Positions 6,201-38,689 of a stretch of 64,000 bases of DNA are shown piece by piece. Each line of letters begins with the position of its first letter. The first letter of the stretch is position 1. A model generated the notes under the pieces. That model did no database searches and was not told the origin of the DNA. It was given only the letters and a program-made list of their open reading frames with translations. The DNA is from Marsupella aquatica (taxonomy: Eukaryota; Plantae; Marchantiophyta): assembly GCA_973895155.1 (NCBI GenBank), contig OZ316897.1, positions 21,170,260-21,234,259 of the forward strand. The letters run 5' to 3'. The position numbers and the translations under genes were made by a program.

Positions 6201-6433
6201 TTTTTGGGCAAAGATTTGTCCATTACTATATTTCCCTGAATTTCACGGACCTCTGTAGTCGGGGTGGAATAGTTTCCAATTCTTGCGACCAGGAGTTTTA
6301 GTCTCAGGTGAACAGTCTCAAGAGCTCGCTCTACTTGCATCAATTTGAGTCTGTTTGATTACGACTAATGTTACATGTACTGCCATCGTCTACATTGCAG
6401 GTGTACAGATTAGAACGAATATGGGCAGACTAG
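251..6433 (+). CDS. SBE3: 1,4-alpha-glucan (starch) branching enzyme, class III (SBE3/AtBE1-like), 5' part outside the window
   Basis: GT-AG exons splice in frame: 251-315, 527-1426, 1602-1771, 1920-2009, 2393-2468, 2672-2779, 3034-3124, 3354-3455, 3607-3709, 3960-4097, 4219-4287, 4573-4728, 4858-4935, 5100-5210, 5330-5410, 5626-5730, 5894-5973, 6128-6182, 6401-6433 ([10 protein letters not shown]). GH13 branching-enzyme motifs: [67 protein letters not shown]. Confidence 0.95.
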
Positions 6434-6850
6434 ATACCAGCTGATAGGAAGAATTGTAACAACATATACCCACGCTGTAGGCTAGACGTTTTGCAACATC
6501 TCCAGTGTGTATTTCTGGTGGCTTGAATGTTGTCAATGAATTTTTGAGCAAGTCTACGACCACATTCACGTACTTGCCTCAGTCAGTTGCCCTGGTTAGT
6601 ATCAGGTAGTTATCTCTTCTACCTTGGCTAGAGTCACAGGTTTATTTGTCACCATAGAATCATAAAACACAAATCCACTACTTATGCATGCAACTTACAC
6701 CATTGTGAAGTCCATTTTTGTGTGGGCATATATAAATCGTCAATTGGGGAGCGGAGAATTGCCACTCGAAGTTAGTAAATTTAAGAACTTTTTGTACACT
6801 GGGTCATCAGTGTCCTCTAAAACGAGGAACCATGACATCGTATTCACCAA

Positions 6851-12400: not shown

Positions 12401-12414
12401 CACTGCAATTACCA

Positions 12415-12545
12415 ATAACATTTTGGGTGGAAAGCCAAGTGGGCATTCTGGGGGCTGGGGTCTTACAAATTGGGTACTGCCTATTCTTTAAGCTCCACAA
12501 AGTTTTTGTGTATTCGTAATAGATATAATCATGATTGCAGTCTAT
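12415..12545 (-). pseudogene. Degenerate extra copy of the 3' part of the RING exon
   Basis: 'attttgggtggaaagccaagtgggcattctgggggctgggg...catgattgcagtct' aligns with 6861-6983 and 12571-12695, with indels and substitutions. Confidence 0.75.
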
Positions 12546-12561
12546 TTAATTTCTGGATCAC

Positions 12562-15500
12562 TCAGAAGTAAATTTTGGGTGGAAGGGGAGTGGGCATGCT
12601 GGAGGCAGGGGTTCTACAAGAGGGGCACTGTCTATGTTTTGAGCTCCACAACGTTTTGGTGCACTTGTAACAGATATTAGCATGATTGCAGTCTTTCCAG
12701 TAGGCCCGCTGCTGATCCAGATGTTGTCCGAACTCATTCATGCAAATGATACACTCTTCCACCTGCACCCAATAAAGCCAGATGGAGACCCCATAACAAG
12801 GTCTCATTTGTCTGTTTCATAACTAGATATAGTTTGCTTCCTTTCAGTCATCCTAACCAAGATGACCTTCCCTGTTGGTTGGTAATCAAGGCAAATAATC
12901 CATGATTATATCCTAGATAACAAATGTGCCTTCACTGACGGTGGGGATGTCTGGACCCAAGAGATTCATGAAGATTTGCTTCATAAGAAATTTGCATATG
13001 TTAAGTAAATGTTGAGAGGGAGACACCACTATGATCAAATCTGGAAGACGAGAATTTTGTATAGGTGCACCACTTACCTCATCCCTCTTGAGCTTTTGGA
13101 TCTCCTCTCTTTGTTCCCTGATTTGTTTGGAAGCCTTCTGCAATTCCACGTTTTTGAGTTTGATTTCTGCATTTCGTTGCTCCAGTTGGTTAAGCAGATC
13201 TTTGCACAATTCTTCTAGTTCCTCCCCTTCAGACACTCCTGTCCTAAGCTTAGCAGATTGCTCCTCCCACCTCTGCCTCTCCATGATGAGATGCAGGGGA
13301 TGCCTATGGGAAACGAAATCCGCTACATCCGTCTTTTTGTGTTTCCCATTCCACATATCGCTTTCGCTTTGCGTCAACTTCCTAAACATGCCATCCGAAG
13401 GTCTCTCCATCTTTCCGGTGGGGGCCTGATGGCTCGAAGCCTTTTGTCTATCTTCTATTCTTCGTTTGAGATCCAAAGCTTGCAGTTCTACATGCAATTC
13501 CTCACTCAGAATAGCTTGAGTGGCTGCAATTTCTGATTTTACGCCTAAAGCCAGAAACTCTTGAAGTACTTGCTCAGATTGTAGCTCTGAATTACTCAGG
13601 ACAGTAGCAGCATGCGGGAATAACTCCTCCCTAAATGATCGTGCATCACTTGATATGGCCTTTGGAAATACTCCGTTGATGTCCCCTCTCTCCAAATGCA
13701 CATAAATGTCAACAATCTGCGACAACAGCTCTCTTGGATTGAACTCGTATTTCTCAGGATTATTAAGTCTAAGCATTCTCCGTTGAGGCCCAACCAATTG
13801 CATCAGGAAGTAGTTAAGCATTGAAGCAATTCTTTCCACCATCTCGGGAAGTAGGAAGGGAGCCGTTATTTCAGCAGAAGTGTAGCGCAACATTTTGACA
13901 TCCTCTTTTGCCAAAGTCATATCAATTCGTACAACATTCTCCTGTTGATGGAAAAATCGAGTTCGTTCCTGGGGAGTCGGACGCTCCCACTCGGCAGTAT
14001 TTTCCATCTCTGCCTCCATCTCTTTAAGTTCTGACATCTTATTCAAACTCTCTTCCAGAAGAGATGTACTGTCGTTGATCAGGAGATTGAGGAACTTCAA
14101 ATACGCTCCCCTTTCTTCAGTCACAGCAATCTGCTTCCAACAAGTACGGTGAGAGGGTACATCCCATAAGTATTCCAGAAGCTCTCCGATATTGTACCGA
14201 ATATTGAATTTGTCATAGAACTGTGTTTTAGAACCGGTGAACTCAATCTCTACATAAAGCTTGAGAAGGTTTGGCACCAGGTACTGCAATGCCAGCTGAT
14301 GCCCTTCGAGCAGGGAAGCCATCGAATTTCTTAACGCTGCTGAATCGCTCTTCGATGGCATCCAGGCACTTAAGACTTCCACCATTTTGGCCCGTAGGTA
14401 AGGATTTTTGACATGGAGAGGGCTTTCCATGAACATTACAATGAAACTCATGAATTCATCCAGAACCATTCCATCTAATGCCCTCGGAACTCGAGACGCA
14501 AAAAGGAGAAGTTCCAATGAGTCCTCGACAAAATGTTCAGGCATTGAAGCAAATTCCATAGGGCACGGAATAGGAAGAGGCATCTTGAAGCCCCCGACGA
14601 GGCTAACGAGCCAAACAATCATCAACCTGTAGAAGCTCAACGCGTTCTGAAGAAGAGCAGTATCCTTCGACAGCTGTGCCTCGTAGCAGTACCAGTCTTG
14701 GGAAAGACGTTCAACTAAAGCCATTCCCTGCATTGATTCCAAATTAGGAGGTGCTCTAACATCACGTAGCCATCTAAGGGTATTCAAAGCCTTTTTCTGC
14801 CGTGAAAGCTCCTGTGTGATAGACTTGAAGTTTGAAATGGCCTTCACCAGTCCCAGATTCAATACTCTCGCAGTCAGGAAGAAACACTCGCAGATAAAAC
14901 TGTAATTTCTTTGCTCCGGCCCCGAGCGGACTGGAACCAGTAAATGGTTCAAGCCATTGCTGGACGACGAAGTTGTGGCTTCGTGTGAATCCATACGTCT
15001 CATTTCTTCTTGCTCCTTCTGCTGCCGGAAACCTTCATTGCGAGATAGGTTGCTTTTATCGACCCATTCAGCGACTTCTTCCGAAGTAGCATGCAATCCA
15101 GTCAAAGAGCTGAAATCGATACGCCCTTTGTGCAGTACATACCCGGCATCTATTTTATCTCTTTTAGAAGAAGAGATGTCAAAGAAAGGTTTGCAGAGAC
15201 TCAGCATAACAGCACTCAAACACACGAACATACCATTGCTGGCATTCGTGAATGGGTTTGCCTGTAGGACTTCGCTTTTAACATTCTTCTGAATCAGGTC
15301 AGCAAAATATTGAAGAACGGATTCTCTGTTGTCCGCAGATTTCAGAAGCTTCAGCAGCAACTCGTGCAATCCTTCGTACAGCTGATGCATAACTGTCCTG
15401 ATCGTTGCAAAAGAAGAAATTATGTCCGAAGGCACCCGATAGCTGATATCGGCGAAGCACCGCTGTCCGACATTTGGTTCACCGTTGCCGAAAACGGGAT

Positions 15501-16302
15501 GGTCGGAAATAGTACTGATGTAGAAGAAGGGCCCTAAAATGCTGCCCACTTCCAACACTCTGCCATTCACGTGCTCGCCCTTGGGGTGCCATAAAGGATG
15601 GTTGACCAGCGCCGTGGCCAGAGGAGGATGCGACACCAGCATCACTAGAGCTCTCAACGGCCCTTGGAATGGACCTAGCGGAGAAAGTTTCGTGACACTT
15701 CGCTGCAAATCTCGAAAGACCGGATTGAAAATGTCACCTAGTTTCTCTGCTTCGAAGAAATTGATGAAGTCGTCAAGAAATCCGGGCGGCAAAGTCGGCC
15801 TACTCGCCCCGACGCCGCTAGTGCCCGGATCGGTCCCCACTGACGGGGAGATATCCGCAAGAATGTGCCCCAACAAATCTGAATGACCGTCATTCGCAGC
15901 CTCACAACCAGGATACAGGCATACATTCCCCACATGCGAGACGCAAAGGTCCCTAACCTGGCCCAACGTGTACTGAACCTCTGCGAGAATCTGCTTGTCT
16001 TTCATGTTTTGCAACTTCCGATGTTCATCTAAAGCTCTCCAGTAGCATCCCACTAAATACACAAATGGCATCTCTCCCCCTCCCAAAAGCCTCGCCATCA
16101 ACACCCTCTCGAGCACATCCCTGTTCAGCGCCAAATTCTTCCCCTCACTCAGCAGCTCAGCGGCTAGCAATTCCAGGTACATGTACTCATGAGCTATTGT
16201 TCCTGCTCCTCCATGCTGCTGCTGCACGAGCGTCACCAGCAAAACCTTCCTCAAAATGAAATCCTCGACCTTCTCTATCCTGCTTAGCATTTCCGCCATC
16301 AC
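12562..16302 (-). CDS. UFD2: Chimeric UFD2/UBE4 core (intronless retrocopy lacking the U-box) fused to coiled-coil + RING-HC (family copy 2)
   Basis: Uninterrupted exon 16302-13078 has UFD2 motifs (EDFILRKVLLVTL, SFICECFFLTARVLNLG, NPYLRAKMVEVL, EFTGSKTQFYDKFNIRYNI, NLLINDS, NPEKYEFNPRELL). It switches at ~13499 to LHVELQALDLK..., homologous to copy 1. Donor GAG|GTAAGT at 13077; RING exon 12762-12562. Confidence 0.9.
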
Positions 16303-17549
16303 TCCACCTCTGTCTCGACAATCTCTCTCTCAATAATCCTCCCCGTAAACCGAATTCAACACCTGTCCGTGCCCACGTTTCGCCTGCCTTCCGTCCTCAT
16401 TCCGTCCTCCTTCCACCAATGCACGATGGATTACCTACAGTAGGTGCCATTCCCGTTGGCGCACTAAATATAGAACTCCTGAAATTCTGGCCTCTAATGA
16501 CAAAATATTTGGGGTCCTTGTGAATCCTTCGAATTTTTTCCCCTGTGTGAAAGATGGCCTTCCTTACATGAAACGGCAATTGAGATTGAATGTTAATGGT
16601 ATACGGTTCACAAATTGGCGATCGCTGTAACTAAGAAACAAAAAGCACAAAAAATATAAACTTCGCATGCGTTTGGCAAGGGTTGAGTTTTTTTCCTGGG
16701 AGAAAATGAGGCTTTAGATGCATTTGGTATAAGATAATTGGCTGAGAATTCGAGAAAATGACCAAGTCTTTCTTAGATCAAAAGTCAACTGATTCCATAC
16801 GAACGTGAGGCTGAATAAGAGAGCTGATGCGATCCCCCACGCCACAAGCTTTGGTCTGCTTGGCTTGCCGGCCCACCCGACCAAGAGGAGGACTCAGGTG
16901 GATTCGAAAAGAAGAGAAACAAAGGCAGCACTCGGTTTCACTCCACTAACGAGGGGCGGGTTTGGCACATGACCCAATTGCCTTTGCATTCAGGATTCTA
17001 TTCGGACAGAGCAAGTACAAATGGGATGGAACTGTTCAAAAAGGATGATTTTTTTTGTTGGTTTTGAGTGCAACCTTTGCTGATAAGTAAAATGCATTCA
17101 AAAAGGATTTTGATTCAGTCCAATAGAAGATCAGAGTTTTTGAAGCTGTGAAACGGAGTCGCATCACCATAGACAGGACTCATCATAACATGCACTTAGA
17201 TAGGGGACTTTGTCAGGACTTACAACAACTTCTACAAATTGTAGCTGAATCAGCCTTTCTCGTGAATTGAAATCAATCTAAATATCTCAGTTGTAAATGT
17301 CGTAGCATCCATCATCCAAAGACTGAAGCAGGTAACACCCTTGTTCCACAAATATTTTGCATTCAATGTAGAGCCCATAAGTTCAAATCCCAACCTTAGT
17401 AAGGAATGCTTCTTAATAAAGTCCACTGCTCGCCAATAAGGGCGAGGGACGGAGCTTACTTCATCGCTAGGGATCCTGCCCGTCTGGATTGCTGTCCAAG
17501 GAAGATCCCTTAACATGTCTGCCTTTTTCTTCTCTTGGGTAGCTTCTTC

Positions 17550-17722
17550 TTCATTTGCACCCTCTTGCACATGAGTTTCCACTCTTTCAGCCTCTTGCAG
17601 GTGAGTTTACAGCTCTCCCTCTGGAGTTTCCACTTGTCTCCCTCCAAATTCCACTTCTGCCTCTCAGCATTGTGTAACTTCGGTAGCTCTTGCCTTGTTT
17701 CTTTATACGAATCTGTGGGAGC
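17550..17722 (-). pseudogene. Orphan 5' coiled-coil fragment of the RING-family gene interrupted by the UFD2 insertion
   Basis: PTDSYKETRQELPKLHNAERQKW...KRLKEWKLMCKRVQ closely matches copy 1 (8355-8190). Confidence 0.75.
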
Positions 17723-17834
17723 TACAATTGCCTGTTGTTTACGTGGAGAGCTGTCTTTTGGTTCTCTGCAAGGAGTAAAGCATTTCCGGGCCTCCGTCCC
17801 ACGTTTCGTAAAGAAACATAACAATAACAACTAA

Positions 17835-18030
17835 TGGTTACAGATGGTCCATCCAAGTTATGCAAGTTGTTGTGATCGATCCATCCACGCTGCTCTTTAT
17901 ACTACTGTGAAATTTACAAGGTAACGCAACGACTGTGGCAGAACAGTGGCGCTTTCTGAGACAAATCAATAACGGGATCAATGATACCCATTTTCAACAA
18001 CTTCAAGTCTTCAGTGTTGGACCGACCGAT
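17835..18030 (-). repeat. Inverted duplicate of 10250-10455 (upstream region of RING copy 1)
   Basis: 'cattttcaacaacttcaagtcttcagtgttggaccgaccgat' (17989-18030) is the reverse complement of 10251-10292 with 2 mismatches. Similarity extends to the 'ccatccaagttat' segment. Confidence 0.8.
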
Positions 18031-22805: not shown

Positions 22806-24405
22806 TTGTTTTATAATCTTATGTATAAAGCCAGAAAGGGAGCTATAGTTGAGTTCTAGGCTTCTAGAGTGAAGTCTATAGACAGTGACTCTAGAGCCCC
22901 ACCATAAAATATGTACATAGAAAAGAGGATGCTATATATATATATATATATATAACGTGAAGGGAAGCTAGAGTTGAAGTTTAGAGAGTGAAACCTCTAG
23001 ACCGCAACTCTAGGGCCCCACCATATATGTGCATAGAAAGGAGAATGTCATAATATGTATGATTGTTAAAATGATGGGGCCAGGCATGGTGGTTTTTTTT
23101 TATCAGACATTTCATTCACCTTCAAAGAATGGGAATAGTAAATATATTTGTTGACACTTTATTGTCCTCTCCACTATTATAGGAATCATGTTCTTTGACG
23201 GGTGTCGGGGCTAATATAAAGTAAAAAGAGAAGAGAAGGAAACAACACAACACTTGTGCATGGACAAAGAATTAAACAATTTGAAGAGATGACACACACG
23301 ACTACTTCAATGCTTACATTCCTCAATGTTGCTAGCATATTGCTCCGACCAGAAAAATTCCTGGGGTCCTCACTTTTTGTCTTCTGACTCATCATGCACA
23401 AATAAGTTTAAGGTGCTTTAATTGAATTTCATGAAAGACATACATTTTTGTGGGCAAACATTAGAGGTTTTCATCCAGACAGTTTTGAGCAATCAAGAAA
23501 AGACAGGCATTTTACAAGTAGTTTTGGAAGATTCCAAAATTATTCCAAAAATATGGGGTTAGAAATGAGGTTAAAAACCAACACAAGGATTAACAAGGTG
23601 CTTGGATGAACTCATAGTACCTGGATTGAGACAAACCAAGCATCACTACCTTATACAGTCTGTGTAACAGTACTCATGAGTTTATGATTCATTTCATATA
23701 TCACCCTATTCATTAAAACTGGAATTTCTCTAGTCCAGAAGTTGACCTTCAAATTTCTTATTTTACCCCCAAAAGTTCTATAACTTGTTCCCCAAAAGCA
23801 TACATTTTAGTTGCCAAATATACACTTTTTGAGGTCTAAAATTACAATTCTAATGCCCAAATTATTAATTAAATAATTCAGTTATCAATTATTAATACTT
23901 ATTAATTAAAAGACATTAAAGTGTTCTTATTATATACAATATAAACAATGAAAAAATAGAATAAGACAATATAATAAATTGAAATGACCCTGATAACCAA
24001 GTTACACAAAGTAACACGGAAGGTAAACCGGTGATGTATTATAAAAGTAAAAAACCTATTTTTACAGGGCCGAGACCACGTCTGCCCCAATGCAGGCTCT
24101 AGATGGTTTTGACCGGTTGTTGAATGTATATCAATTACTATGTAAAAATCTATGTCAAGATTATCTCGACCCAAATGTAGGGTCCACATAATTTTGACCC
24201 CTTGTTGAATCTATATCTCTAGCTATTCCCTTTGTATAGGGTCTAGACCCAAATAACCTTTTTCTGAGAACATATCTACAAGTAAATGAGGATCAACAGC
24301 ATCTAGACTCAAATGGATACTACGCATAGCTTCACTCTTTTTTCGAGTAAGAATATGTATATGTACAACTCACATCGTAACTGTTCAGTGTAGGGTCGAG
24401 ATAAT

Positions 24406-25680
24406 CTAGACCCAAATCTCATGCTCCTCCACCCCGCAGAATTCATTTGAGCAAGTAAACCTAGACCCTGACGGGTCATATTTCATATCGCGATTACAGA
24501 AATTGAGAGGCTTTCTATTCCAGAACTTTGTTGTGAGGTCCCTACACCTCAAGACTTCCAAAACAAATCCCCGATGATTGTCTCTGTAGGGTCTTGTGTA
24601 CTGATATCCAATTAATGTCTTTGCAAGGTCGTTGATCGCCTCCTCCGTCAATTCCTCCATTGGTGGTAATTTTTGCACTTCATTTTTGATATCCCAAGGA
24701 ATTTCGTCCGCTGTGACATCCAAGACTGTATGGAAAACGGAATGAACCCATACCATACTACCCCACCGCTCCGTCAACAATGCATAAATGGAAGCCTGTT
24801 GATCTCTGTCCGATAAAACATTTATCATAGACCACTTTGGATGATTGATAAAAAGATAGTGCTGAAGATTGAAGGCATGATACAATTTCCTGAGCAGAGG
24901 CCACAGTATTTCTGGAAAGAATGTATCATCCGTGGAGTGATGCGAAAATGAGGAAGGAAACAACCCACAATTCTTTGGATTTGCAAACGCCTTCATTGGA
25001 GTGTCATCAAGAAGGAGTGTATTAGTTTCGTCATATAATCCACCATAACGTTTCCAAACAACCCTCAAATCCTTCAAAAGAATATTTGCCTTCCCATCGG
25101 TAATGTCAGGCCTCTGGATTCCAGTATCGAATGTATCTTCTTGAGTGAGAATAAACTTGAATTGCTCTCTCTCTTCTTGATTGAAGATCAAATGAATCAT
25201 TTCATCCGTCTTGGGTTTCCTTGCACAAGTCCAAATGGCAACATCAAATAATGAAAAAGCTGCGATTAAGAACTCGTGAAGATGGGGTCGCTCAACATAC
25301 ATAAAGTTAAACCCTCCACGTCTCCCCCAGTGGACACCATTGACACTTGTCGCACTACGGCGCGGTCCGGAACTTGGCGTTTTGACAGAATCCCAGCACA
25401 TTTTGTTGAGGTCAAGAATCAATAGCTTCCGTCTGATCGGACCGTGAAGTGGAGGCAAGGGTCCTGCAAAGTACGAACACCAACGTTAGAATTGTGGGAG
25501 ATAAAACAAAGGAATGCTCGAGACGATCTCGAGCATCACAAGTGAATGAACAACAGTCAACATCATACCTGTTATTTGTGGAAGGTCAGTAGTTGAAGAA
25601 ATCTCAGGACATCTTCGGAGATTATTGTCGACGCACTCCACAATTTGTAAGGGCCCGCCTATTTCTGTGAAGGTAGACAT
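24406..25680 (-). CDS. FCP1/NIF-family HAD phosphatase-like protein (transposon cargo)
   Basis: Exon 25680-25569 (ATG; donor G|GTATG) and exon 25463-24406 (acceptor CTTTGCAG|) join in frame. Motifs KLLILDLNK, ERPHLHEFL, FDVAIWT, LLKDLRVVW, NTLLLDDTPMKAFANP. Confidence 0.8.
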
Positions 25681-25734
25681 AATAATTTAGACGGCTGAAT
25701 TTCCGGACAGTTCAAACTAACTTGGGTTTCAACC

Positions 25735-28700
25735 TCACGTGCTGAAAGACCCAAATTCATCTAGAAGGTTATCTCCTAGTTGGTTTTGGATGTCCAAATT
25801 TATCCCTCCGGGAAGGGTCTCAACAAGAGCTGGCTCAGACCAAACTGACACTAATTTGAACTTATCCATCCTATACTTTCTAGATCGAATAATCTTCTCA
25901 GACTGCTCTATAGAGATGTGTTGACCTTTTGACGGTCCATCAGTCCAAACATAATGAGTAGCACTTGCTTTGAGTGATTTGTAACCAGTTCTACCGATTT
26001 CAGTCCCCGGTTTCCTAACAAAAGGGAGAATTACGGGGCTTCCAGTAGAAGAATCTGTGAAAACAAGCTTATTCTCTGAAGCGCAAAACATTTGGTCCAA
26101 GGGAGAGGACGATGCACCTGCCTCGTCCTGAGGGGGAGTATGGAAGCCACTAGCTTTCTTAGTAGAGAAAATCTCATCCAGTTGAGGAGGGCTTGGAATT
26201 GGTTGGCTAACTGCATCCTGCAAGGTGGATTCCCAGCCAACATCCAAGGTTGAAGACTGTTGTTCACGTTGTGCATCCCCAAGGTCACCCGATGAAGGAA
26301 CACTTGGAACATCGAGATCATCTCGAGCATCATTTCCAAATTCAGGGAGTATTTCACCCTCTTCTTCCATGTAGCTTGTAATTTTCGGGCCCTCCATTTT
26401 GCGATGCTCTAAATTCTCCGCAAATACTTCCTCATAAACACTGGCTTCCACTGGAGCTATGTCTGTGGCCGCCTCTTCTATAAGAACGAGGGGACCAGCA
26501 GTAATTTCCTCAGATGGTAACGGCTCCTTGGGTGGCACATATAAAACTTGCTTGTTGTCATGAAGGAGCTGAGCAAAGGCTTCAGTGAATTCCATCTCTT
26601 GAGCTGTGTCCGAATACACAAAACAATCCCGACCAAGAATGACACAAGCTTTCAATGTCTGTCCTCCAGAGAAGAAATCCAACACTGTATGACCTGGGCA
26701 CGAGAAATAATCAACAAGACGCTTTGTCATTCGCAAAGGCTTTGCTCTCGGATTTACAAAGCCACCACGCCGACCGACCATCTCATAAGATGGGGCCATC
26801 TTCTCCAAAACTTTGACATCAATAGTGGATTCATCGAGCTTCTCTTTCCCATTTGATTGGTCTTTGTTGTTCCCAGTAGGGGCCTTCAAAGGCAAGACTG
26901 TGAAGTCTTTGTCCCACTTCTCACTGTAGTTCCAGAACGCATAAAAGTCATCAAAGAAAATTTGGGACCAGTCTGGTTCCTCTTCACAACAAATTCCCCC
27001 AAAGATGATTGAGTATCGAGCTCCAATGAGAAAATCTCCCTCCTCCTTGGGCACCTGATCACGGTAGTAGCTCCCGTACTCCAGCTTCGTGTGCACTTTC
27101 TTCTCACGACGAATCTTTTCAAAGGCACTCTGAATCTGGCCTATCAATGGGCCTTGACGGACAAAAAAGATTACTAAGACCTCCGTCGAGTTCGCCATCT
27201 GCAAGCAATACTCCAGCAAGACAAAAATTTCGGCATCTGTCCACTACCATTGTCGAATACGACCAAAATCGACAATGGAGAGTGGACACGTCCTTTGCAC
27301 CGAGTCAACAACCTCAGGCTTCATTGTCCTCATCAAATTATCGCTAAAAAATGTGCGATAAGGAGTATCCTCCATTGAAGGCAATCCGCCAAATACCTTG
27401 CAATATATCTGCTCAAGCCTCACAATGAGACTTTGCGGAAATGGGTCTTTTGGCCTATTTCTTTTTAGGAGGTTGGAAATCCAAACCTCTCCAGCAAGTT
27501 GTCTAAGTTTGGGCAACTCACCACGATCCATAAATGCAGGCAACAATTGAGTTAGCTCAAACCAAGTGAGTGAATTGGTAAACCGATCCGGATACTTCAA
27601 AACGAAGTACTCCATAATTTTTACCCTCAGCTTGGTCATGACTTTGAAAGTATGAGCCATATCACTCATTGATTGAATATCAGATTTGTTGGCTTGGTCT
27701 TTCTTCAATAAAACCTTCTGTTGTTGAACGGCAGTAAAAACTTTCAGAATGTCGTCATTACTCAGGTCTCCTTCAAAGCATCTAAACAATGCCGGCGTAA
27801 TCATTTTTGTTGTCCGGGCTTTCCCGTTTATTTTTGAACCTAACTCCCCTAGACCATCCGGAAGAAGTCCCTTGACCCAATCGATGCACATTTGTCTCCA
27901 AGTTCGGAAGAGGTTCTCATCCGAAAACAACAACCAAAAAATATTCCTCAGATCAGATTTTCCAGTCGTTATTTTGGCAAGGGCCATAAAATCCTGGTCC
28001 AAACAGTACAAAACAAATCTGAGGCTCGAGACGATCTCGAGGTAGAATTAAGAAACTATGGTAAAATTTATGGGAGAATACATGAAGATAAATCAAATAC
28101 AGAAACTTGACCTCGAGGCTCGAGACAATCTCGAGCTCGAAGTGGATTTGAGTTCAAATATACCTGGAACTTTTGATGATCCGTTAGTCTATTGGACCCA
28201 ATCACGGGTCTCTCCGGACGGCCACACTCGTCAAACTGTCGACGCGCATGGACCATAGTATCAAGAAAACAGGACTCATACTCCATTGTCTTATTAACAG
28301 CATTTGCCCTTTGTGAGTGTTGAGCAAGTATTGTCCTTGGAGTTCTGTCCGAAAGAATTCGTGACTTCCAATATTGCAGACTCTTCGCGACCTCCTTCAA
28401 CTTTGCATCGCTCTTAGCCCAACCTATGATCCAAACAGCTGCTTTTGCCGAGTGTTGTCCACTGATTGCAAGGAACTGCACCTTCTTATTCTTAACACCC
28501 CACTCAAACTCCTTTCGATCCTCAGCAGTATTCTCATAATGGAGCAACTGCAAACTCTCTCTTGAATACGGAATTAAATTCGCCATAGCTGGTACCATTC
28601 CAGGGTTTCTAACCATGGATTTTGCAACCTCCATGGCATGGTCTTTATTGAACATCCTATAAACCAAAACTGCAGATGGCGAATCTATACTGGTGACAGG

Positions 28701-30678
28701 AATGTCAAAAGTTTCATTCATGCCAAATGTGTAATACTCCTCAATCTCCTTAAGAACTTCGGCTCCTTCCTTAACGCTCTTTTCTCCCGGAGCATCTCCT
28801 GGAGTGCCATCATCATCGGTATGTGCATTCACACCCGAGGAAGATGCCGGAATGAGATCTACCTTGGGCGATGCGGACTTTTTTGGTGGATGAGCCTTCT
28901 TCGATTTGATTTCGGGTTTGTCAACCCTCTTCCTCTTTTGAGACACCTTCGCTTCCTTTTTGTCCGAACCGGAGGTCTTGTCTCCTGCAGCTATGGATTT
29001 CACTTTACCTGTTTGTCTCCGATGAGACAACACCCACTTTTTACAAGCATCCTGGTCAAATTCTCCGGCTCCAAACACAAAATCAGGGGATATAGATTCA
29101 AACTCCCCCAATTTGGATTCCAACATTAGTCTCAAAACCTTCCACGTGAAAGGAGTCGTGAATGCATCATCGCGATCAAGCCCATACTTCCGACAATAAA
29201 GGAATCCAAAAATTATGTCCGCTCCAGATATAGGAGTATCTTCTAGCAAATTACTTGTAGTAAAACCCTCGGGGAAGAAACCCATTGATATCACGCTCAG
29301 TTGTTTCCTGGCTGCACGTTCAATGTTAAGATCGCAAGAGTAGTTTTTGGCGTGAAGTCTAATTAGAGCCCACTTCCCTGTTTCGTGGTTCTCCACCGTC
29401 AAAACCATGTCCTTACCGTTACTCGTCACAATAGAAACAACAGGCCCTAGAAGGCTGCACACCAGAGGATCGACTGATGGAGACTTCGTCTTCACACAAA
29501 TAATAGTTCCTTCCATGTCTTCAGTTTCAGCAAGCTCAATGGCCCAACAGAATCCAAATAAACTCTATCCAGGGCAGGAAATCTCAATTGCATGTTCATC
29601 TTCGACTACCAAATTAGGCGATCCCAATTTCGCACTTGGTACAGCAAAAATGTAGCAATTGTCAGAAACATGTACTACAAAACCAAGATACAAATAGGTG
29701 GCTCGAGATGATCTCGATCTTCAGTTTACTATTAGACATGTTCCAATGCCATTTCATCCGTGGAATTTAAAAAGAGATTTCAAACCCAAGAATCCCAGGA
29801 AACACAATAGGCTCGAGATGATCTCGAGCCACCATCTGTTTAAAAGAAAAAGATAAGGGCTCGAGATGATCTCGATCCACATATATATCAGTTGAGGCTT
29901 TATTCCAACTGGTCCAAAAGGCAAGCTTGGATCACATTGAAAAGGATATTAGTAATTGAAGTAGACAACAAGGAGTCCTTCCAACTGGAAGAAATTGGCC
30001 AAGGGAGACGAATGAACATAAGGGAAGACGGTGTGGGATATATTTGGCTCGAGACGATCTCGAGCCTAACATATCAAATGAGTGATCTGAATATCATATT
30101 CAACAATTAACATCATATTCAATCAACGATAAAAAATCCACTTTCTCCATTAACTTCTGATACCCACAAACCCGTTCGGATGTCAATGATCAGAACGAGT
30201 TGGAGGGCACAGAAGTCCCTGGAGGAAGGAAAATTTAGATATTTTGGATATGATGTTCAATTTTGAAGGGTAAGGGTTTCCAACTTGAAGAAATCTCACT
30301 AGGTCACATGCAGGAATTGCATATTGGCTCAAGACGATCTCGAGCCTCATGCCACTTACATCAAATGCAAAATCAATTAATAGATCATAACTTTTGAAAC
30401 AAAATATTGGAGAAAACATCAATAGGCTCGAGATGATCTCGAGCCTCAACGGCATCCAAGGAATCCAAAAACAAGTGGACCAATTGAAGCTCGAGACGAT
30501 CTCGAGTTAAACCTGAACAGAACAAAGATGAAGAATTACGTTTAATGGTGCGATGGATCTGATGTGCTGAGTCTAGATGGGTCTGGAGCTCTTCGCCAAT
30601 GGTTGCAAGGTTGTACTCAGCGAAGTCCTCCTTGGAGAAATCTACAACAGTCGACATGGCTGGTGATGAGAGGAACAT
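25735..30678 (-). pseudogene. Multi-exon transposon cargo gene: ParB/Srx-like domain + beta-class N4C/N6A DNA-methyltransferase-like domain, with nonsense lesions
   Basis: ParB-like segment IPVTSIDSP..YRMFNKDHAMEVAKSM...FLAISGQHSAKA...ANAVN (~28720-28280). Phase-0 intron 28163-27994 joins KFQ|DFM. In-frame TAG at 27246-27244 and another TAG at ~29565. MTase-like PRAKPLRMTKRLVDYFSCPGHTVLDFFSGGQTLKACVILGRDC (~26751-26620). Likely first exon 30678-~30540; the exons between it and ~29640 are unresolved. Confidence 0.65.
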
Positions 30679-31810
30679 ACTACGGGCTGAGAACTTAAAA
30701 AAAATCTCGAGCCTAAAAAGAAAATCTCGACCCTATCAAAGCTCGACCCTAAACACAAAATCTTGACCCTATAAAATCTCGAGGAAAAAACCTAATCTCG
30801 ATCCTCTGCAATCTCGAGGCTAATAGAAGGATCTCGAGGCAAGAGCGCGAAACGATCTAGAGGCAAGGAGGCAAGGGACGCGAGGAGGCGAAGAGGCAAA
30901 GAGGCGAGGAGGCAAATGTGAAAATGGGGAATTCAAAACCCCTGAAGCCACTATAAGCCCCTCGGGGGTCGGCCTTGGCCGTGCCAAGCGTGCCAGGGCT
31001 CGTGCAGGCTCAAGCAGGCTGCCACGCAACCTGCTGGGTGCGTACAGTCATTATTACGGTCACACGTGTTGTCATTATTGTTATCCGTACTTCAGCCCTG
31101 CTGCAAGTTTAGCCGTGACACAAGTTCAACCATTCCGTCTTATTGCCCTTTTTGTCTGTCAGGGTTTTATATATTGCTTCTCCTTGCTCTTCAGCGGGTC
31201 ATTCTTCTCATTTCATTTCACCGCTCGCTCGTTTCTTCCTCTGCCTCTCTGCTCTCTCTCCCTCTCCCTCTCCCTCTCTCTGGCTCTAGATTTGTGCTCT
31301 GATCTCTTTCTGTTGTTCTTTTCAAGGGTTTTGGAGTCTACGTTTGTGTTTAGGATATTTCGAGAAATTGTCATTTTAAGCCCCGAAGGAGGTCTAAAAT
31401 AATTGAGCTCCTATCTTTTAGAAAACCGAACCTTTTCAGCTTATACTAATGTCGGTCAAAATCCATTTGGAAGCCTTTTCCCTCTATTTGATGGCCTTTT
31501 AGAAGCTTTTTCTCAGTGTCTGGAAGTAAACTGGGAGCCTACTTTCTTAATTGCACCAAATCATTCCTCTAGATCATCTAGAGGCATTTATATGTTCTTA
31601 TTTTGGGTGGCTTATTATTCCTAATAGTTTCTTTGTCAAATACAATGTCCTTTTTGGCTCGAGATCATCTCGAGTCATAAGTTTGGTCCTCAAACTTATT
31701 CACTTTCCCCTTCTTTCTAATGGTGCATTTGGTTTTCCTTCTTATAATAAATGTTTTTAGAGTGTCGGAGGTATAGAATCTTAATTCGATATTCAGTGAG
31801 ATTCATATTT

Positions 31811-32030
31811 TACCTCGAGATCGTCTCGAGCTAAATACTTCTGAATTTTTACATATTGGTGTTTTTGGTCCCTTTTCTACCTCGAGATTGTCTCGAGCTA
31901 AATACTTCTGAATTTTTACATATTGGTTGTTTTGGTCCCTCTTCTACCTCGAGATCGTCTCGAGCTAAATACTTCTGAATTTTGACGTATTGGTGTTTTT
32001 GTCCCTCTTCTACCTCGAGATCGTCTCGAG
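31811..32030. repeat. ~67-bp tandem repeat (3.3 units), each unit carrying the 17-bp CTCGAG palindrome
   Basis: Palindromes at 31814, 31881, 31948 and 32014, separated by ctaaatacttctgaattttt. Confidence 0.9.
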
Positions 32031-33454
32031 GTAGAAGAGTTTCTTATTTTCTCTATCACACAATTTTGTGGGATAAACTTCTACACTTGGGTTTTTGTAG
32101 TCACTTTACCTCGAGATCATCTCGAGGTGATCTCGAGGTAACTACATCCAACGGTTTGGGCCACGTTTTCAAAATGGGGAGTTTCTCTCGAGGGGACAAG
32201 GTGTGCCTCGTAATCGACGGAGTGGAAGTTGCTTGCGGGATGGTCCTCAAGGTTGACCCGGGTGACTCAGTGCGTAATGTTGATTTGGGAAGTAATCGTA
32301 TAGGAGTTCTCATTGAGAAGTGCTATGAGGGATCACAGGAAATTCCTTACCCTTTGCCGCCGATCAGGACCCTGTTTGATGCTGTCGACTCTTGCATTAT
32401 TTGGGATGCCTCTTTTGCATATTTGAAGTCACAGTCAACTCCAGCGACAACGAAAATGGATGCCTCCTGTTCTAGAAAGGATACGGTTCCGGGTTTTGTA
32501 CCAGAGAAATCGTCGGTGGAAATTTTTGGAGAGTGACTCGATTGTATCTGGCGATGAAGTCGAGGTCTGGATCGGCAATCAGATTGTGGCTCGTGGATTT
32601 GTGTTCAAGACGAATCCCGATGAGACATGTCACAATGAAAGACTTGGCACTTCTAGGATTAGTGTGAAAATATGTGAAGTTTTTCAAGGAAGGGAGAGGT
32701 TACCCTTTCCTCACAATGGAGCCGATACCGTTCAGGAAGCATTGGATACTTTTGTATTGTGGAATTTAAAGGATGTTACTCGGAGGAGTTCTTCCCGGGA
32801 TATGCTAAACAACCTGTCCAGACAGGATGTTTTTTCAAATTATAATTTCAAGGATTATAGTTTGCGTTCTAATTGGATGACCGAGGAGGTGGAATTGTAT
32901 GCTGAGGATAATCGGACCAAAGTGGGGGTTGGCATCATCACAGTTCCTTTCAAGTCAGGTGCAATTGATGATGATGTTCTTGGACCAGATCATGTTGGGG
33001 TTGCTGTCACACGCGTGATTGACCCTCTATTTTTCCCAAATATCTCCCCAGGAGTGCCTGGTCTTGTTAGGTGGGCCGTCCGTTCACTTTTGCTGATATC
33101 AAGGGGTATTTTTCTTCTGGATCTCATTGAAGAGGTTTCTCCGAAACCAATTATTGATGGTCGAGATCATCTAGAGGTAGATATGAAAGGTGACACTAAG
33201 TTTTTGAAGCGCCCGTATAATTTCATCAAGAGAACGAAGGTCAACCCAGATGAAAAAAGGAAGAAGCACTTGGAGTCTCGGGCGATACTAAAAATCACAG
33301 AGGAGGAAATCGACTCCATCCAAAGAGAAGGTTGTTGTAAGTTGAAGTGTTGCCTCAGCATGCCGAGAGAAGACCTACAGGAGATAAGGAGGGAATACCA
33401 TGGGATGTCAAGCGACAACAAAACCAGTCACATTCTCACTCTTTTTGGCTGTAG

Positions 33455-35137
33455 CACTAGTACATTTTACCTCTTTTTTCCGATTCTCTCCACATCGGAC
33501 GCCTTTGTAAAATAAAATTTGAAAAACCATATATCCGATACTACTAGCATCGCAACATGCCATTTTAATAGTATCGGATATCGACAATCGGACTTCTATC
33601 GGAAAGTCCGATGGTGGGAGAATGGGAAAGTCCGATGGTGGGAGAATGGGAAAGTCCGATGCTAGGAGAATGGGAAAGTCCGATGGTTAGAGAATGGGAA
33701 AGTCCGATGCTAGGAGAATGGGAAAGTCCGATGGTGAGAGAATGGGAAAGTCCGATGCTAGGAGAATGGGAAAGTCCGAAGCAATCAAAATGGGATATGC
33801 ATTTCAGTGGACGCGATATGTTCAGGTCACCTATCTCTTCCTTTAATTGGGTTTCTACTTTCATTTGGAACTATGAGCTAGGTGCCCATCTCCCTTGACA
33901 TGTGAACTATTCAAATTTTCTCAACTAATTGGTCACCCATCCCAATTGCTATTCCTCCAACATGAGCTTAACTTTGTGGTTCTTATTCCTTACATTGTAC
34001 ATGCAAGCTTAGCACTTTTGTTGTTTGACTTAGAGTGTTTGGGGATTTTATACACTTGTGAGTTTACTAAGACCCATAATTTGGATCCATTCTTGATCCA
34101 TTTTTCTCTATCATGAGATTAGATCTTTGCATCAAGTGACCTATTCTAGTTACCCTATTACATTCCCCTAGGAGAAACCAATAGAAATCTGGCAGGGGTC
34201 ATTCATCGATAGTAAAGCCCTCCTTCATTAGATTTGATATGGGATAATTATGGCTTATTAGTTATGGATGATATTTTGGTCCTTCCAAAGCCTCAGCGTC
34301 AATGGCTCCTGATTGTCTCATCTTTTATCAACTATGTTGTTGTTGGACTTGCAACAAAGACTACATGGGACAAGCAACCTCCTTCTAGATGATGAATTTT
34401 GGACTTGGCATGTTGAGCATATATTTCCGTAAGGGAACAATATGTTGGGTCTTGGAATGAGGCAAAAACAACACTCAAGTCCATTTGCCTCAAGTATGAA
34501 GTTATTCATGCATGCAAGAATGATTGCATCTTTTGGGAAGAGTATGTCGGTGCAACCACATACCCCATCTAACACATCAAAACTTTTCATTCTAACACAA
34601 TCAAAAATTTTCTTTTTGTCATAACCAGTCTTTCCCATACTCCCAGCATCGGACTTTCCCATTCTTCTAGCATCGGACTTTCCCATACTCCCAACATCGG
34701 ACTTTCCCATTCTTCCAGCATCGGACTTTCCCATTCTTCTAGCATCGGACTTTCCCATACTCCCAGCATCGGACTTTCCCATTCTCCTAACATCGGACTT
34801 TGCCATGTTAGCACAATCGGATATAATATCCGTTATTATTAACTACGGAAAGTTTCCGATCAATATTGTAACACACATCATTTTCGTTACAAAAAACATC
34901 GGACATATCAATCAAAGTTTCTGTTGAGGGATCCGATGTGTTTTCTAACGGATATGATCCGTTTTTTAACGCATCGGAAAGGTTCCGTTGTCAATTATAT
35001 CGGAAATGAAGATATCCGAAGCCGAGAGTATGGCATATTGCCATTTTTTGATAATCAGAATTTCCGATGCTAAAAGAATCGGACGCCGATTGTTCGCAAA
35101 AATTGAGCATCGGAAATCAGCTTAATATGTACTAGTG
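33455..35137 (+). mobile_element. Non-autonomous CACTA (En/Spm) element nested in the transposase
   Basis: TIRs CACTAGTACAT / ATGTACTAGTG, 3-bp TSD TAG. Many TCCGAT/ATCGGA subterminal motifs. TnpD remnant WNEAKTTLKSICLKYEVIHACKNDCIF at ~34454-34535. Confidence 0.95.
33601..33780 (+). repeat. 24-bp minisatellite (ggaaagtccgatgStRggagaatg, ~7.5 units) in the CACTA left arm; inverted mirror array at ~34630-34803
   Basis: Read directly; it produces the spurious GEWESPM repeat ORFs. Confidence 0.95.
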
Positions 35138-38100
35138 TAGGGAGAAGGAAGTGGAGACAAAAGGATATTTTGTTGTAAGAAGTAGACTTGTTTGCAAGGG
35201 TGCATTTATTAAAATGCATGGATTCAGCACTGCCAAGTATTATGATTACAAAAATCAATATGAAGCAGGTTGCACGGTTGGATTCCACGGAAACAAGGGT
35301 TCACACAAGACACGGGGAAGCACCTTGCATGCTCGTGCTTTGTTGGAGTCCATTCTAACCCAAAACGGAGAACCCATGCCGCATCTTCCCTATGGAGGGT
35401 CTCACGGGACTGACACGGTTGAGTACAGACTTCCATCTTGTTTCACGAAGAAAGAGATTTTTGAGGAGATATACTCAAAAATGGAATTAGATGGCTACGT
35501 GAAGGTGAGTGAAAACACTATGTATAAACTCTGGAGTGAGTCCTTCATGAATTTTGACTTTCACAAGGGAAGTGCATTTGCAAAGTGTACACTTTGCACT
35601 GAGTTCAAAGATCAGTTGATGCGGGAGAAGAGAAAGAAAGAGCGTTTAGAGATTGAGGAAAGAAGAGCTCGCCATCTTCGTGAGCAAATGTCTAGGATAT
35701 ATGTTTACTATGCTCATAGGGTTCTTGCGAAGAAGGATCCTGAGAACTATCTTTGCATTATACATGACAAGATGGACCAGGCCAAGACATGGATCCCTAG
35801 GTTGGTCCCCACTCCTAAATCATTGTCTGGTAGTGGTCAATCGCTCCCCATTGCGCTCACTGGGATGTTGACCCATGGAAGGGATCCCGGAGTGTATGCT
35901 CACTTCAGTTTTACTGGGCTTTGGCCAGGAGATGCAGACTTCACAGTGACATCATTGGCCAAGTGCCTTAGAGATCTGGAGGATTACAAGGGGGACAAAT
36001 CTGGAGACCTCCTTGAAGGATTATATTGGGCTGCAACGAGGCCAATTTTTCAATCTCTTTTGGACTTTGAAGCATTTCTCGCAGGTTACTTAGAACCCAA
36101 AAAAGTCTCAATTGCTAGATTTCAAGGAGCTGAAGATGACCAAGACGACTTTGGTGTTGATCCCAAGGCTACGTCTACCTCTTTCAAACCATTGCCAAGG
36201 CACCTGACCTTGCAAATGGATAATTCAGGGAAAGATAACAAAAACCAGTACATGATGGCATTTTGCAGTGAGCTTGTTAGTAGAGGGGTTTTTGAAACAG
36301 TGCAGATGTCGTTTCTCATGGTTGGTCACACCCATGAGGATGTCGATGCATTGTTTTCAAAAGTATCCAACCAAGTGAAGTACAAGGAGGTTTCTACCCT
36401 CTTGGGGTTGATGGCTGAGGTTTGGGAGTGTGAAAGCATTCATCCTGTGCCACGGTTGATCCAAGAGGTTGCAGCTTACAAAAAGTTTTTGAAAACTTTC
36501 AAGGTAAAAGATATAGAGGGTCACTCAAAACCAGTGACATTTCTTTTCTCTATGAGAGATAATGTTCCAATATATCAATACAAAGCACATGTGAAACAAC
36601 CTTGGTACCCTCCAACCGGAAGGTCCATTTGGAGAACTGATTCCAGCACCAATGCTCTCATTTTACCAGAAGGTCAACCATTTGCAAAACCCATCTCCGG
36701 GGATGTACGAGGCAAGGTTGAAGAAATCATCCCATTCCTTAATCGTTACATTGAGTTTTTGAAGAAGAGCTGTAAGGATGAGACCTCTACAGCATATCGT
36801 GAGCGGTTTCCTTTGGTGAAATATTGGGAGATGGTGGTGCAAGTATTATCTGGGGAGCTTACAATTGAAGGGGAGGCAGAAATACAGTTAGCATTGACAT
36901 ATGAATTCTGGCCAAAAACCAACCACGGAACTGGTTACAAGGTTAATAGTACAGGAACCTCTGAACCATTGGGGGAGCCTAGTAGTAGTACACAGAATCC
37001 ACAAATGGTGGAGCTTCAGAATGAGTACCTGGAAGAGATGGAGGATCAAGCTGCAACATTTGTTGGTGCTCGACACGAGCGAGAACTTGCACGTTGGATT
37101 CCTCTGCAGGACATTCAAGAGGGTCACTTTGTATTTCTCCGTCCAGAGGATGAATGGGAAAGGAAGAATGGGAAAGAACGTTTCTGGTTGGTGAGAGCTT
37201 TGGGTGTTGTGGACCCAAACCATGAGGTTCCTTCAGGAGACTTGCAATGCAATGAGAATTCTCCTACTAGTACACGGTATGCTCCTATGTTCCAAGTGCA
37301 ATGGTGGAGGCCTAAACATGGTAAGCATGATGCACCGGATCATGTGCGATATTCACGTTGCTTTCAGACCACTAAGACTTGGGAGGTGGATCCTGGGTTT
37401 GACAGTGCCACTGAACGTTGGCAATTTGCTAATTCTGCTATGTATGGATTCAAGTCACGCTCTAGAGAAGAAAATATAATTGATAGAGGTTTGACCATTC
37501 CCAAGAATGTTTTGAAAACACTCAAAACCTACATGGAAGGGATTGTTGAGTAAGTCAAATGTTTTTTAGTAGTCACTCTGTCAGAGTGAGGGAGTCTAGT
37601 ATGTCAATTAGTTTGGAATTAGACATGTCAGAGTGAGGGAGTCTATGTCAATTAGTTTGGAATCAGACATGTCTTTAGTACTTACTGAGTGTTGGTTAGT
37701 ACTAAGTACTAGTATATCTATTTAAGGAACTAATTATTATAATATTTTGGGATACTAGTTTGAATAGGTGGAGGTAATTGGACTTGGATACCTTTATAAT
37801 TGCTTCAATTAATTATTATATCAATACAGACTATATATTACATGAAGTCTTAATATCCATGATAGGATGTGAGTGCCTCTTAGTACTGTCTAGTAAACCT
37901 TAGTTTCAACTCGAGTTGCTTAGAATGTACTAACAAATTACTTGTCTGAATGGATATTTAAACTAAACCCTAAGTAGAAGGTTAATTTAGCTAGCTAAGG
38001 GTAGAGATCATATTGAAGCTTTACTAGTTATATGGGTAGAGATCATATTATTTGAAGCTTTACTAGTTATATGGGTAGAGATCATATTGAAGCTTTACTA

Positions 38101-38689
38101 GACACTTATATTCTATTAGTCAAATTGAATCAATGTAAGTAAATTCTACTTCTTATCCAACATATTTTACATTATTATCACCCAAATGTTTTTCTTTAGA
38201 ATCCAAATTAATATTTCATTTTCTCCTATGTACAATCTTGATCCCCCAAATGTACAACATCTGGTGCCCAAATGTACAACTCCCACTGCCCAAATGTACA
38301 ATTCTTGTGCCCAAATATATATTTTTTGGTGCCTAAATGTCCAAAGATCAAAGAATTTTCCAGTTTTAATGAATAGACTGATATATGTTAATAAATGCCA
38401 AACTTTGGAAATGCAAAGTGGAAGCTTGGATGGACGCAAATGTTTGACATTGCTAGGATGGACTCAAGAACTTTACACTGTCAGAATACTCTCTCAGCCT
38501 TCTAGTGTCATGATACGTGATAATCAAGAGAGTCAAACTCGTTCAGTTGAATGGGAACAGAGGCCACTGCATGGCAGACTACTAGAGGAATCCACACTTT
38601 CCAAACATTCTATTAGTGGTCAAATGCAGGGTTCCATGTCATTTTTTGAACAAAAGTGTAAAAACACTCTGTAAGTAAACCAACATGTA

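Follow-up and report, generated by a model that had tools for sequence, protein, structure and literature searches.

What, if anything, reads a set of short palindromes that is found in one transposon and nowhere else around it? The question arises from a 64,000-nucleotide stretch of the liverwort Marsupella aquatica (assembly GCA_973895155.1, contig OZ316897.1, positions 21,170,260 to 21,234,259 of the forward strand), here called the window, in which a DNA transposon at 23702-38380 carries two passenger genes in addition to its transposase. Our tentative answer is that this is a decayed DUF7869 element, probably of the Sola1 type, with a conserved two-gene module, and that the palindromes are sites for a protein of its own, for which the ParB-like product of passenger gene 1 is the leading candidate. 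That some protein encoded by the element reads the palindromes is quite possible, if short of probable; the narrower proposal that this accessory protein, the product of passenger gene 1, is itself the reader is rather doubtful.

The association of palindromes and element is clear. A 17-bp palindrome, CTCGAGAnnnTCTCGAG, is present in 18 copies confined to the element: with up to one mismatch, CTCGAGANNNTCTCGAG gives 18 matches, all within 25517-32137 and none elsewhere in the 64 kb, where chance predicts 0.01 and none of 100 shuffles reaches 18. When up to three arm mismatches are allowed, the matches number 28, of which 24 are in the element. The 18 copies bear out an earlier note on this DNA, which had put such element-restricted palindromes at about 18 to 20. 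Seven lie in the predicted first intron of passenger gene 1, two in a supported intron of the same gene, one in the intron of the phosphatase-like passenger gene 2, and seven upstream of the transposase ATG, four of these within 67-bp tandem repeats (31811-32030) that hold one palindrome each. Taken on the sense strand of whichever gene contains or follows them, 16 of the 18 read CTCGAGAT[C/T][G/A]TCTCGAG, and the orientation reverses at the divergent center; the exceptions are the copy at 26311, in coding sequence, and that at 32121, which overlaps the one at 32110. The supported intron (28163-27994) has one copy near either end, at 28119-28135 and 28025-28041, and in a homologue, P0128 (48% identity), read-through of the same passenger 1 intron gives ARDGLEA, as the palindrome would encode. 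In 9 of 16 palindromes the center reads TCA or TTG, variants that look like decay of a central CpG, and the arm CpGs are mostly kept. Exact solitary half-sites are absent from the rest of the window outside the element. The copy in coding sequence (26311-26327) encodes ARDDLD in a poorly conserved linker, where P0122 (38% identity) has VRDHLL aligned, beside a conserved EEGEI.

Palindromes also mark breakpoints among copies of the family, with structural variants joining 29830 to 30420, 30063 to 32107, 31949 to 32108, and 29639 to 29809, the first of these joints lying between two identical 26-nt units. The window palindrome occurs in none of 80 metagenomic DUF7869 loci. Two of these distant loci have arrays of other words. 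L077 (1-6014) holds 20 perfect copies of a 15-bp palindrome, ATCCCAGWCTGGGAT, every one of them outside the three transposase coding blocks and some directly inside the gaps between blocks. L015, a compact 2977-bp contig, holds 10 copies of ACGGGTGnnCACCCGT, with 47-bp arrays (52-335 and 2837-2935) flanking the transposase on both sides, seven tandem copies upstream and two downstream.

The candidate reader, passenger gene 1, is a single spliced minus-strand gene that combines a PH-like domain, a ParB N-domain, and a beta-class DNA methyltransferase fold. Its predicted length is ~1295 codons (30657-25735), and the transposase runs on the plus strand from 32174. Homologues establish the continuity of the two parts. 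Calypogeia fissa P0129 and the 1009-amino-acid P0279 pass from the 29674-28164 exon straight into the sequence of the 27993-25735 exon, and P0123, P0124, and P0127 end directly past the donor site of the window, which together fix a 170-nt GT..AG intron at 28163-27994; Riccia P0243 and P0241 likewise have both the ParB-like and the methylase-like part. None of the 15 joints listed, of 57 in the contigs of four sequencing runs, falls at an intron of the accessory or the phosphatase gene. In the window the reading frame is broken twice, by a TAG at 29565-29567, where every listed contig of all four runs has G at 29567 and so reads CAG, and by a TAG at 27244-27246, where P0122, aligned across it at 38% identity, has Glu.

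The model of the ParB exon (mean predicted local distance difference test score [pLDDT], 63) places ParB, Noc, PadC, and KorB at structural ranks 1-11, with 7bnk_B best (Z 8.2, root-mean-square deviation [rmsd] 2.8 over 95 residues, model residues 284-428; VIA), Foldseek E values of 0.015-0.09, and sulfiredoxin at Z 5.6, so that on the modeling a ParB/Srx N-domain fold is present. Its first 134 residues have a weak PH/PTB-like likeness (Z 5-6). This exon has no match in Pfam, NCBIfam, PDB sequences, or Atlas, and the domain is visible solely by folding; AISGQHS is invariant in all eight ParB-exon sequences, and HAR.Q is a further invariant stretch. For the last exon (mean pLDDT, 64.6), beta-class N6-adenine/N4-cytosine DNA methyltransferases fill ranks 1-20 at Z 14-17.2, led by CcrM 6pbd_B (Z 17.2, rmsd 3.7 over 216 residues, model residues 224-509; VIA), with a Foldseek E of 1.9e-7 and a profile match to M.RsrI at E 1.3e-8. 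The same minus-strand frame matches the N6_N4_Mtase family (PF01555) at E 2.6e-6, 28.0 bits against a cut-off of 26.7. The model thus has the beta-class fold with its permuted motif order. The fusion of ParB-like and methyltransferase-like parts named in the earlier note therefore holds, with P0129 and P0279 crossing the junction and the two folds at Z 8.2 and Z 17.2.

Whether this fold still modifies DNA is another matter. The S-adenosylmethionine-binding motif I is kept (VLDFFSGG, aligned to VLDFFAGSG of M.RsrI), and across 18 sequences of this region K436 never varies and D457 and S460 hardly do. The catalytic motif IV, (D/N/S)PP(Y/F/W), is present in none of the 18 aligned family members; its place, judged to follow predicted strand 256-260, is occupied by SIVDFGRI (D-F-G-R) in the window and by D-[FLAT]-x-[RHST] in the relatives. 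With the motif missing throughout, a DNA "modifier" role, as had been suggested for this protein, appears doubtful. GATC, GANTC, or other methylase target words within the palindrome were considered and set aside on the same ground, the catalytic motif being dead. At the C terminus, a domain of ~110 residues (25738-26100, minus strand), predicted to be small and beta rich, has conserved FC.S..KLVF, SPVIL, HY.W.DGP.KG, and E.GSF. The helical region of the accessory protein is matched at E 1.2e-6 by a 465-amino-acid fern protein, P0248 (Ceratopteris richardii KP509_05G015800), from which the accessory family may reach beyond liverworts.

Passenger gene 2 begins 55 nt past the stop of passenger gene 1 and matches the NIF/FCP1 family (PF03031) at E 1.3e-16, 61.2 bits against a cut-off of 21.8, over profile positions 1-155 of 160; residues 334-514 of Riccia P0261 match 25431-24853 by tblastn. 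NIF/FCP1-like HAD phosphatases have a catalytic DxDx(T/V) motif, and the substrate of the FCP1-type family is the tail of RNA polymerase II. At the motif the window reads LILDLNK and P0261 LILDVEG, with the first Asp kept and the second lost in both. The HAD phosphatase of the earlier note is thus right as to family and lacks the second Asp of DxDxT. Its two tandem left-arm genes, divergent from the transposase, are likewise real and both on the minus strand, with passenger gene 1 not intact in view of its two in-frame stops.

Are these genes regular partners of the transposon? Contigs of the four public runs, from three coded organisms, were aligned to 23500-38600 in 30 bins. They number 7520, 2899, 2282, and 211 per run, at 90-100% identity, and together cover all 30 bins. 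In X2, passenger bins have a depth of 4400-10075 and transposase bins a similar 4390-17946, with a flank contig at 51; in X1, the center is 5-20 times less covered than the genes. A methylase-like profile finds 156 representatives, 27 of them with E up to 1e-30; of 20 looked up, 14 are named, 13 from Riccia sorocarpa and one from Ceratopteris richardii, and none is algal. The Riccia accessory genes, 13 looked-up records or 14 with a second cluster member, stand near transposases in three cases: R1sor_018197 adjoins the DUF7869 transposase R1sor_018196, and R1sor_011498 and R1sor_011623 are two locus tags from transposases R1sor_011500 and R1sor_011621, respectively, so that 3 of 14 are at most two tags from a DUF7869 transposase where ~0.17 is expected (rough Poisson P, 0.0008). 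In R1sor_016354, R1sor_008251, and R1sor_018816, the methylase-like and NIF parts are annotated as one protein. From coverage like that of the transposase in four runs and adjacency in Riccia, we conclude that the two passengers are conserved partners of a transposon lineage and not one-off captures. A scan of metagenomes with the accessory protein gave 176 pattern matches, of which 0 were confirmed. Among the 80 metagenomic loci, the sole passenger-like trace is a NIF-like stretch in a decayed region of L011-L013, which are one place in three assemblies.

The frame of the element itself is that of a cut-and-paste DNA transposon of a many-copy family, bounded by terminal inverted repeats (TIRs). 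The inverted repeat encloses ~14.7 kb with ends CACCCTATTCATTAAAACTGGAA... and ...TTCCAGTTTTAATGAATAGACTG, and the arms, at 23695-23724 and 38358-38387, are 30 nt and 93% complementary, a span that takes in ATAT and one further base; TIRs of the kind expected of Sola-1 transposons (30 nt, 93%) are thus present, and the TIRs with ATAT on both sides that the earlier note had drawn at 23702-38380 were recovered. ATATAT is itself palindromic, so one copy fits a duplication of 2, 4, or 6 bp, or a longer TIR, equally well; a second copy of the element was not found within the window. The transposase runs rightward and both passenger genes leftward, away from it. Repeats resembling CCCAAA(T/A)GTAC lie near both ends (23760-23860 and 38228-38331) in the same direct plus-strand orientation; subterminal sites are usually mirrored, and these are not. 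A left-flank contig from X2 ends at 23689, 12 nt short of the TIR.

The transposase is recognizable and dead in this copy. The frame 35136-37553 matches DUF7869 (PF25273) at E 3.6e-44 in a Pfam profile search, and 182 relatives have E up to 0.001, the best full-length one being P0001 (1250 amino acids, 51% identity over 812 columns). Three acidic blocks, HDKMD, QMDN..NKN, and GHTHEDVD, are invariant in all 13 aligned transposases. The named relatives are liverwort proteins, from Riccia sorocarpa and Calypogeia fissa, which lends no support to the earlier hint of a moss affinity. By tblastn the gene starts with an ATG at 32174, shifts to another frame within 32533-32538, and continues from ~35141; an X1 contig aligned across 32422-32595 has 170 letters where the window has 174, a difference of 4 gap letters. 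A right-arm transposase is therefore present as claimed, in a frame that is not intact, since it is interrupted by the frameshift and by a nested 1683-bp CACTA-type element. The termini of this nested element are CACTAGTACAT and ATGTACTAGTG, TAG is duplicated around it (33452-33454 and 35138-35140), and a 24-bp unit forms inverted subterminal arrays at 33598-33795 and 34630-34821. One contig in each of the four runs joins 33449 to 35136 without it, and the joint restores a frame that aligns gap-free with P0001. The termini, the TAG duplication, the inverted arrays, and the skipping contigs rule out an intron at 33455-35137. With two nonsense codons in passenger gene 1 and a transposase broken by a frameshift and a nested insertion, the copy in the window is decayed. 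Within the N-terminal region of the transposase, at 32150-32830, a domain of ~90-110 amino acids occurs at least twice, and P0001 residues 8-98 and 117-203 each have a second match there (32553-32828 and 32150-32404).

Taken together, these features suggest how an intact copy might work. A DDD transposase would cut at the TIRs and insert with a 4-bp ATAT duplication, and a central divergent promoter would drive both arms. The accessory protein would be a scaffold that reads sequence without catalysis: its ParB-type domain would let it dimerize at the symmetric sites and the array of half-sites that surround promoter, leaders, and introns. In concert with its phosphatase-like partner, it would govern the transcription or chromatin state of the element that encodes it, whether for self-regulation or for escape from silencing. 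A self-targeting or antisilencing role of the module is putative. In its most ambitious form, the proposal is one of parS/ParB-like self-recognition in a land-plant transposon, conserved across liverworts, in which a catalytically dead scaffold on oriented palindromes and half-sites brings a carboxy-terminal-domain (CTD)-phosphatase-like partner to RNA polymerase II, so that copies recognize themselves and control or protect their transcription; this we regard as distinctly unlikely.

Several observations weigh against palindromes read by the ParB-like protein. A symmetric DNA-bound dimer needs neither the orientation shared by 16 of 18 copies nor copies near intron ends. L015 and L077 have palindrome arrays of their own and no accessory gene detected, so that the transposase could be the reader. 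More broadly, the accessory gene was found in none of the 80 metagenomic DUF7869 loci, 28 of which have at least 7.4 kb upstream (tblastn, E 1e-4; profiles, E 0.01), so the gene belongs to this lineage and not to the DUF7869 superfamily generally. In the protein itself, no ParB helix-turn-helix was found, the VIA alignments covering chain residues ~37-132 only, and Atlas and structure comparison gave no usable lead for the 220-residue helical region (27993-27247). The sequencing runs are of unrecorded kind, DNA or RNA, and their depth is a sum over all contigs. The single-protein Riccia annotations are possibly merged gene models, yet they show adjacency. Lastly, the transposase is probably of Sola1 type on indirect evidence, DUF7869 transposases being taken as Sola1 transposases.

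Explanations other than an accessory reader must account for the same patterns. The palindromes may act in RNA, transcribed in sense in leaders and introns, where hairpins of 7-9 bp or mutual pairing would help to define or loop out introns or mark transcripts; the palindromes may also be remnants of small introner-like insertions. We consider an RNA role fairly unlikely, for all that it would explain why 16 of 18 copies share one sense-strand orientation that reverses at the divergent center, why 17 of 18 are outside coding sequence, and why the supported intron has a copy near each end, with those of predicted intron 1 standing 33 nt from the donor and 26 nt from the acceptor. Hairpin stability as RNA is -14.6 kcal/mol, the variants CTCTAGA...TCTAGAG (31567) and GTC...GAC (24154, 24395) alter both arms together, and in L077 all 20 palindromes avoid coding blocks, some lying just within gaps. 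However, the seven solitary half-sites at 30704-30862 cannot fold into hairpins, which favors a reader of sequence. Because two copies of like orientation pair with a mismatch at the center, the shared orientation is no argument for pairing, and one inverted duplication followed by local copying would produce that pattern in the absence of selection; both intron 1 and the structure of the leader are predicted, and no Rfam family matches at gathering score. Alternatively, the palindromes could be sites of the transposase, a second set beside the subterminal repeats that serves to find, pair, or condense a long element, with the accessory genes unrelated to them. The element-specific arrays at the distant loci L015 (10 copies) and L077 (20 copies), with no accessory gene detected, and the large, internally repeated N-terminal region of the transposase point this way. 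We nonetheless judge transposase sites unlikely: the palindromes avoid the ends, the nearest good copy being 1.8 kb from the left TIR and none lying in the last 5.2 kb; the ends carry a different repeat, CCCAAATGTACAA; and the contigs of L077 and L015 are short, so that an accessory gene may lie past their ends.

It is also conceivable, though improbable, that the palindromes have no function and are a self-complementary unit spread in noncoding DNA by slippage, hairpin-primed repair, or gene conversion. The tandem 67-bp repeats with one copy each, the two 26-nt units (29805 and 30420) that are 100% identical, the several structural-variant breakpoints at palindromes, and the center of X1, covered 5-20 times less than the genes, are all in keeping with such spread. 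Passive spread fits less well with arm CpGs mostly kept where the central CpG has decayed, with the presence of copies in three different introns, as far as 4 kb away from the main clusters, with a related peptide trace in the corresponding intron of the 48%-identical P0128, or with the absence of palindromes from the terminal noncoding DNA of the element. As to the passenger genes, the earlier note had allowed that they might be one-off captures, that is, host genes taken up once by this copy in the manner of Pack-type elements. NIF-type phosphatases are indeed ordinary host genes, and the passenger genes of the window copy are broken. Yet a single capture is scarcely credible when hundreds to thousands of contigs, drawn from four runs, cover the passenger bins at transposase-like depth, when open-frame homologues exist in other organisms at 34-56% identity, and when Riccia has methylase-like and NIF neighbors at three loci and accessory genes beside transposases; family-wide coverage and linkage both speak against it. 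Recognition of the palindromes by the ParB-like accessory protein remains the reading that we put forward, as tentatively as above.

Features of the element and its surroundings in window coordinates, with the basis for each.
Feature	Position	Strand	Basis or remark
ATAT, candidate left copy of 4-bp target-site duplication	23698..23701		Sequence
Left TIR	23702..23724	+	Inverted-repeat search
Phosphatase-like exon 2, stop 24406-24408	24406..25463	-	PF03031 match; tblastn of Riccia P0261
Phosphatase-like predicted GT..AG intron, 105 nt, with palindrome 25517-25533	25464..25568	-	Splice sites and frame by hand
Phosphatase-like predicted exon 1, ATG 25680-25678	25569..25680	-	Sequence
All 18 palindromes	25517..32137		Pattern search
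Palindrome starts 1-9	25517, 26311, 28025, 28119, 29702, 29812, 29860, 30048, 30328
Palindrome starts 10-18	30427, 30490, 31658, 31814, 31881, 31948, 32014, 32110, 32121
Passenger 1 last exon: helical region, methyltransferase-like fold, low-complexity linker, C-terminal domain	25735..27993	-	P0122 alignment, fold, profile
Passenger 1 GT..AG intron, 170 nt	27994..28163	-	Homologues crossing junction without intron
Passenger 1 exon: PH-like N-terminal domain, lysine-rich linker, ParB N-domain	28164..29674	-	7 homologues, 34-56% identity
Passenger 1 predicted intron 1 with 7 palindromes (29702 to 30490)	29675..30539	-	Splice sites and frame fit
Passenger 1 predicted first coding exon	30540..30657	-	ATG 30657-30655; open frame 30385..30732
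Central divergent region	30658..32173		GC-/CT-rich core ~30850-31300; promoter role inferred from divergent genes
Array of half-sites standing alone in direct orientation, ATCTCGAG: 7 copies, 4 of them exact and 3 with a single mismatch	30704..30862	+	Pattern search
Transposase part 1, N-terminal repeats	32174..33454	+	tblastn of P0001: 1-115 frame 2, 127-461 frame 3
Nested nonautonomous CACTA-type element, 1683 bp	33455..35137		Termini, TAG duplication, repeats, skipping contigs
Transposase part 2, catalytic core	35141..37553	+	PF25273 E 3.6e-44; P0001 alignment
Subterminal repeats CCCAAATGTACAA at right end	38228..38331	+	Repeat searches; transposase-site role inferred
Right TIR	38358..38380	-	Inverted-repeat search
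ATAT, candidate right copy of target-site duplication	38381..38384		Sequence

ParB-like and methylase-like genes in giant DNA transposons have been noticed only lately, in algae, and the design is now seen in land plants, where a phosphatase-like gene joins as the third member of a conserved module. The family-wide loss of the methylase catalytic motif argues for binding or scaffolding over DNA modification. The module comes with a defined candidate target, the 17-bp palindrome CTCGAGATCGTCTCGAG and a half-site array, in fixed orientation with respect to transcription, and because liverworts are tractable, self-recognition of a transposon by its own protein and sites can be tested directly. 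Such self-recognition, if true, would amount to a cis/trans epigenetic module in three parts, encoded by the transposon and conserved among liverworts.

Among systems outside the algae, the VANC antisilencing protein of the VANDAL21 Mutator element is reported to act on short motifs across the noncoding DNA of its own element. The likeness is that of an element-encoded protein, whose action is proposed here, paired with motifs dispersed in the element's own noncoding DNA; VANDAL21 differs in belonging to another superfamily, without relation in sequence or fold, and in having targets that are not known to be palindromic. METTL14 and MTA9 are inactive methyltransferase-fold partners used in substrate binding, and their structures match the accessory protein at Z ~11, each being a methyltransferase fold without a working catalytic motif; they differ in that they are of the MT-A70 clade and have an active paralogue as partner, and no active partner is seen here. 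With bacterial ParB-parS and with Noc and KorB, the element shares the ParB N-domain fold and short palindromic sites clustered within a few kilobases. Bacterial ParB differs in its helix-turn-helix, which was not detected here, in the arginine-bearing nucleotide-binding motif GxxR of its N-domain, of which SGQHS is the candidate counterpart here, and in its ParA partner, of which there is none in this eukaryotic nuclear setting.

The closest parallel by description is Sola1-1_Ec32 of Ectocarpus, a 21.5-kb element that encodes a 1104-amino-acid ParB-like and DNA methyltransferase protein on the strand opposite the transposase (PMC12477816), so that the module cannot be called undescribed, as the earlier note had supposed. 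According to that 2025 paper in Genome Biology, Sola1-1_Ec32 makes a 4-bp duplication and has the moss element Sola1-1_PPa as its nearest entry, and the algal ParB-methylase proteins are proposed to bind and modify their own transposon (PMC12477816). Both elements, at 21.5 kb there and 14.7 kb here, are large and TIR bounded with a 4-bp duplication (a candidate one here), both have a protein of this makeup opposite the transposase (~1100 amino acids there, a predicted ~1295 codons here), and nested insertions and pseudogenized transposases are common. The algal host is a brown alga, unlike the land plant here, and the termini AACCG/CGGTT with 282-bp TIRs contrast with CACCCTATTC and TIRs of ~23 nt; the parts of that text at hand mention no phosphatase partner, palindromes, or loss of a catalytic motif, and the likeness given here is one of description.

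A second algal parallel is the giant Plavaka element of the red alga Bostrychia moritziana, whose accessory genes PAG2 and PAG3 encode PF01555 methylase-domain and ParB-like proteins and whose inverted-repeat tandem arrays adjoin the ParB-like gene, with binding of the own element proposed in the preprint (bioRxiv 10.1101/2025.02.11.637652). It too is a giant DNA transposon, and the top structural match described there, 7BNR, is rank 2 here. As described there, the transposase is of the Plavaka/KDZ-EnSpm type, ParB is fused to a 2-oxoglutarate (2OG) oxygenase and the methylase to SET, in contrast to the fusion of ParB with a methylase-like fold here, and the NIF phosphatase is absent. Iyer et al. 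(2016), in the sections accessible, report ParB-linked adenine methylases in algae and chytrids and none in land plants. For algae, both the presence of ParB-methylase accessory genes in giant transposons, Sola-1 among them, and the idea of self-binding are thus already published (PMC12477816; Petroll 2025). Our literature searches, which for the preprint covered the main text, gave no report of such a design from land plants or liverworts or with a phosphatase partner. What is new relative to the algal elements is the land-plant host, the phosphatase partner, the lost catalytic motif, and the oriented palindromes.

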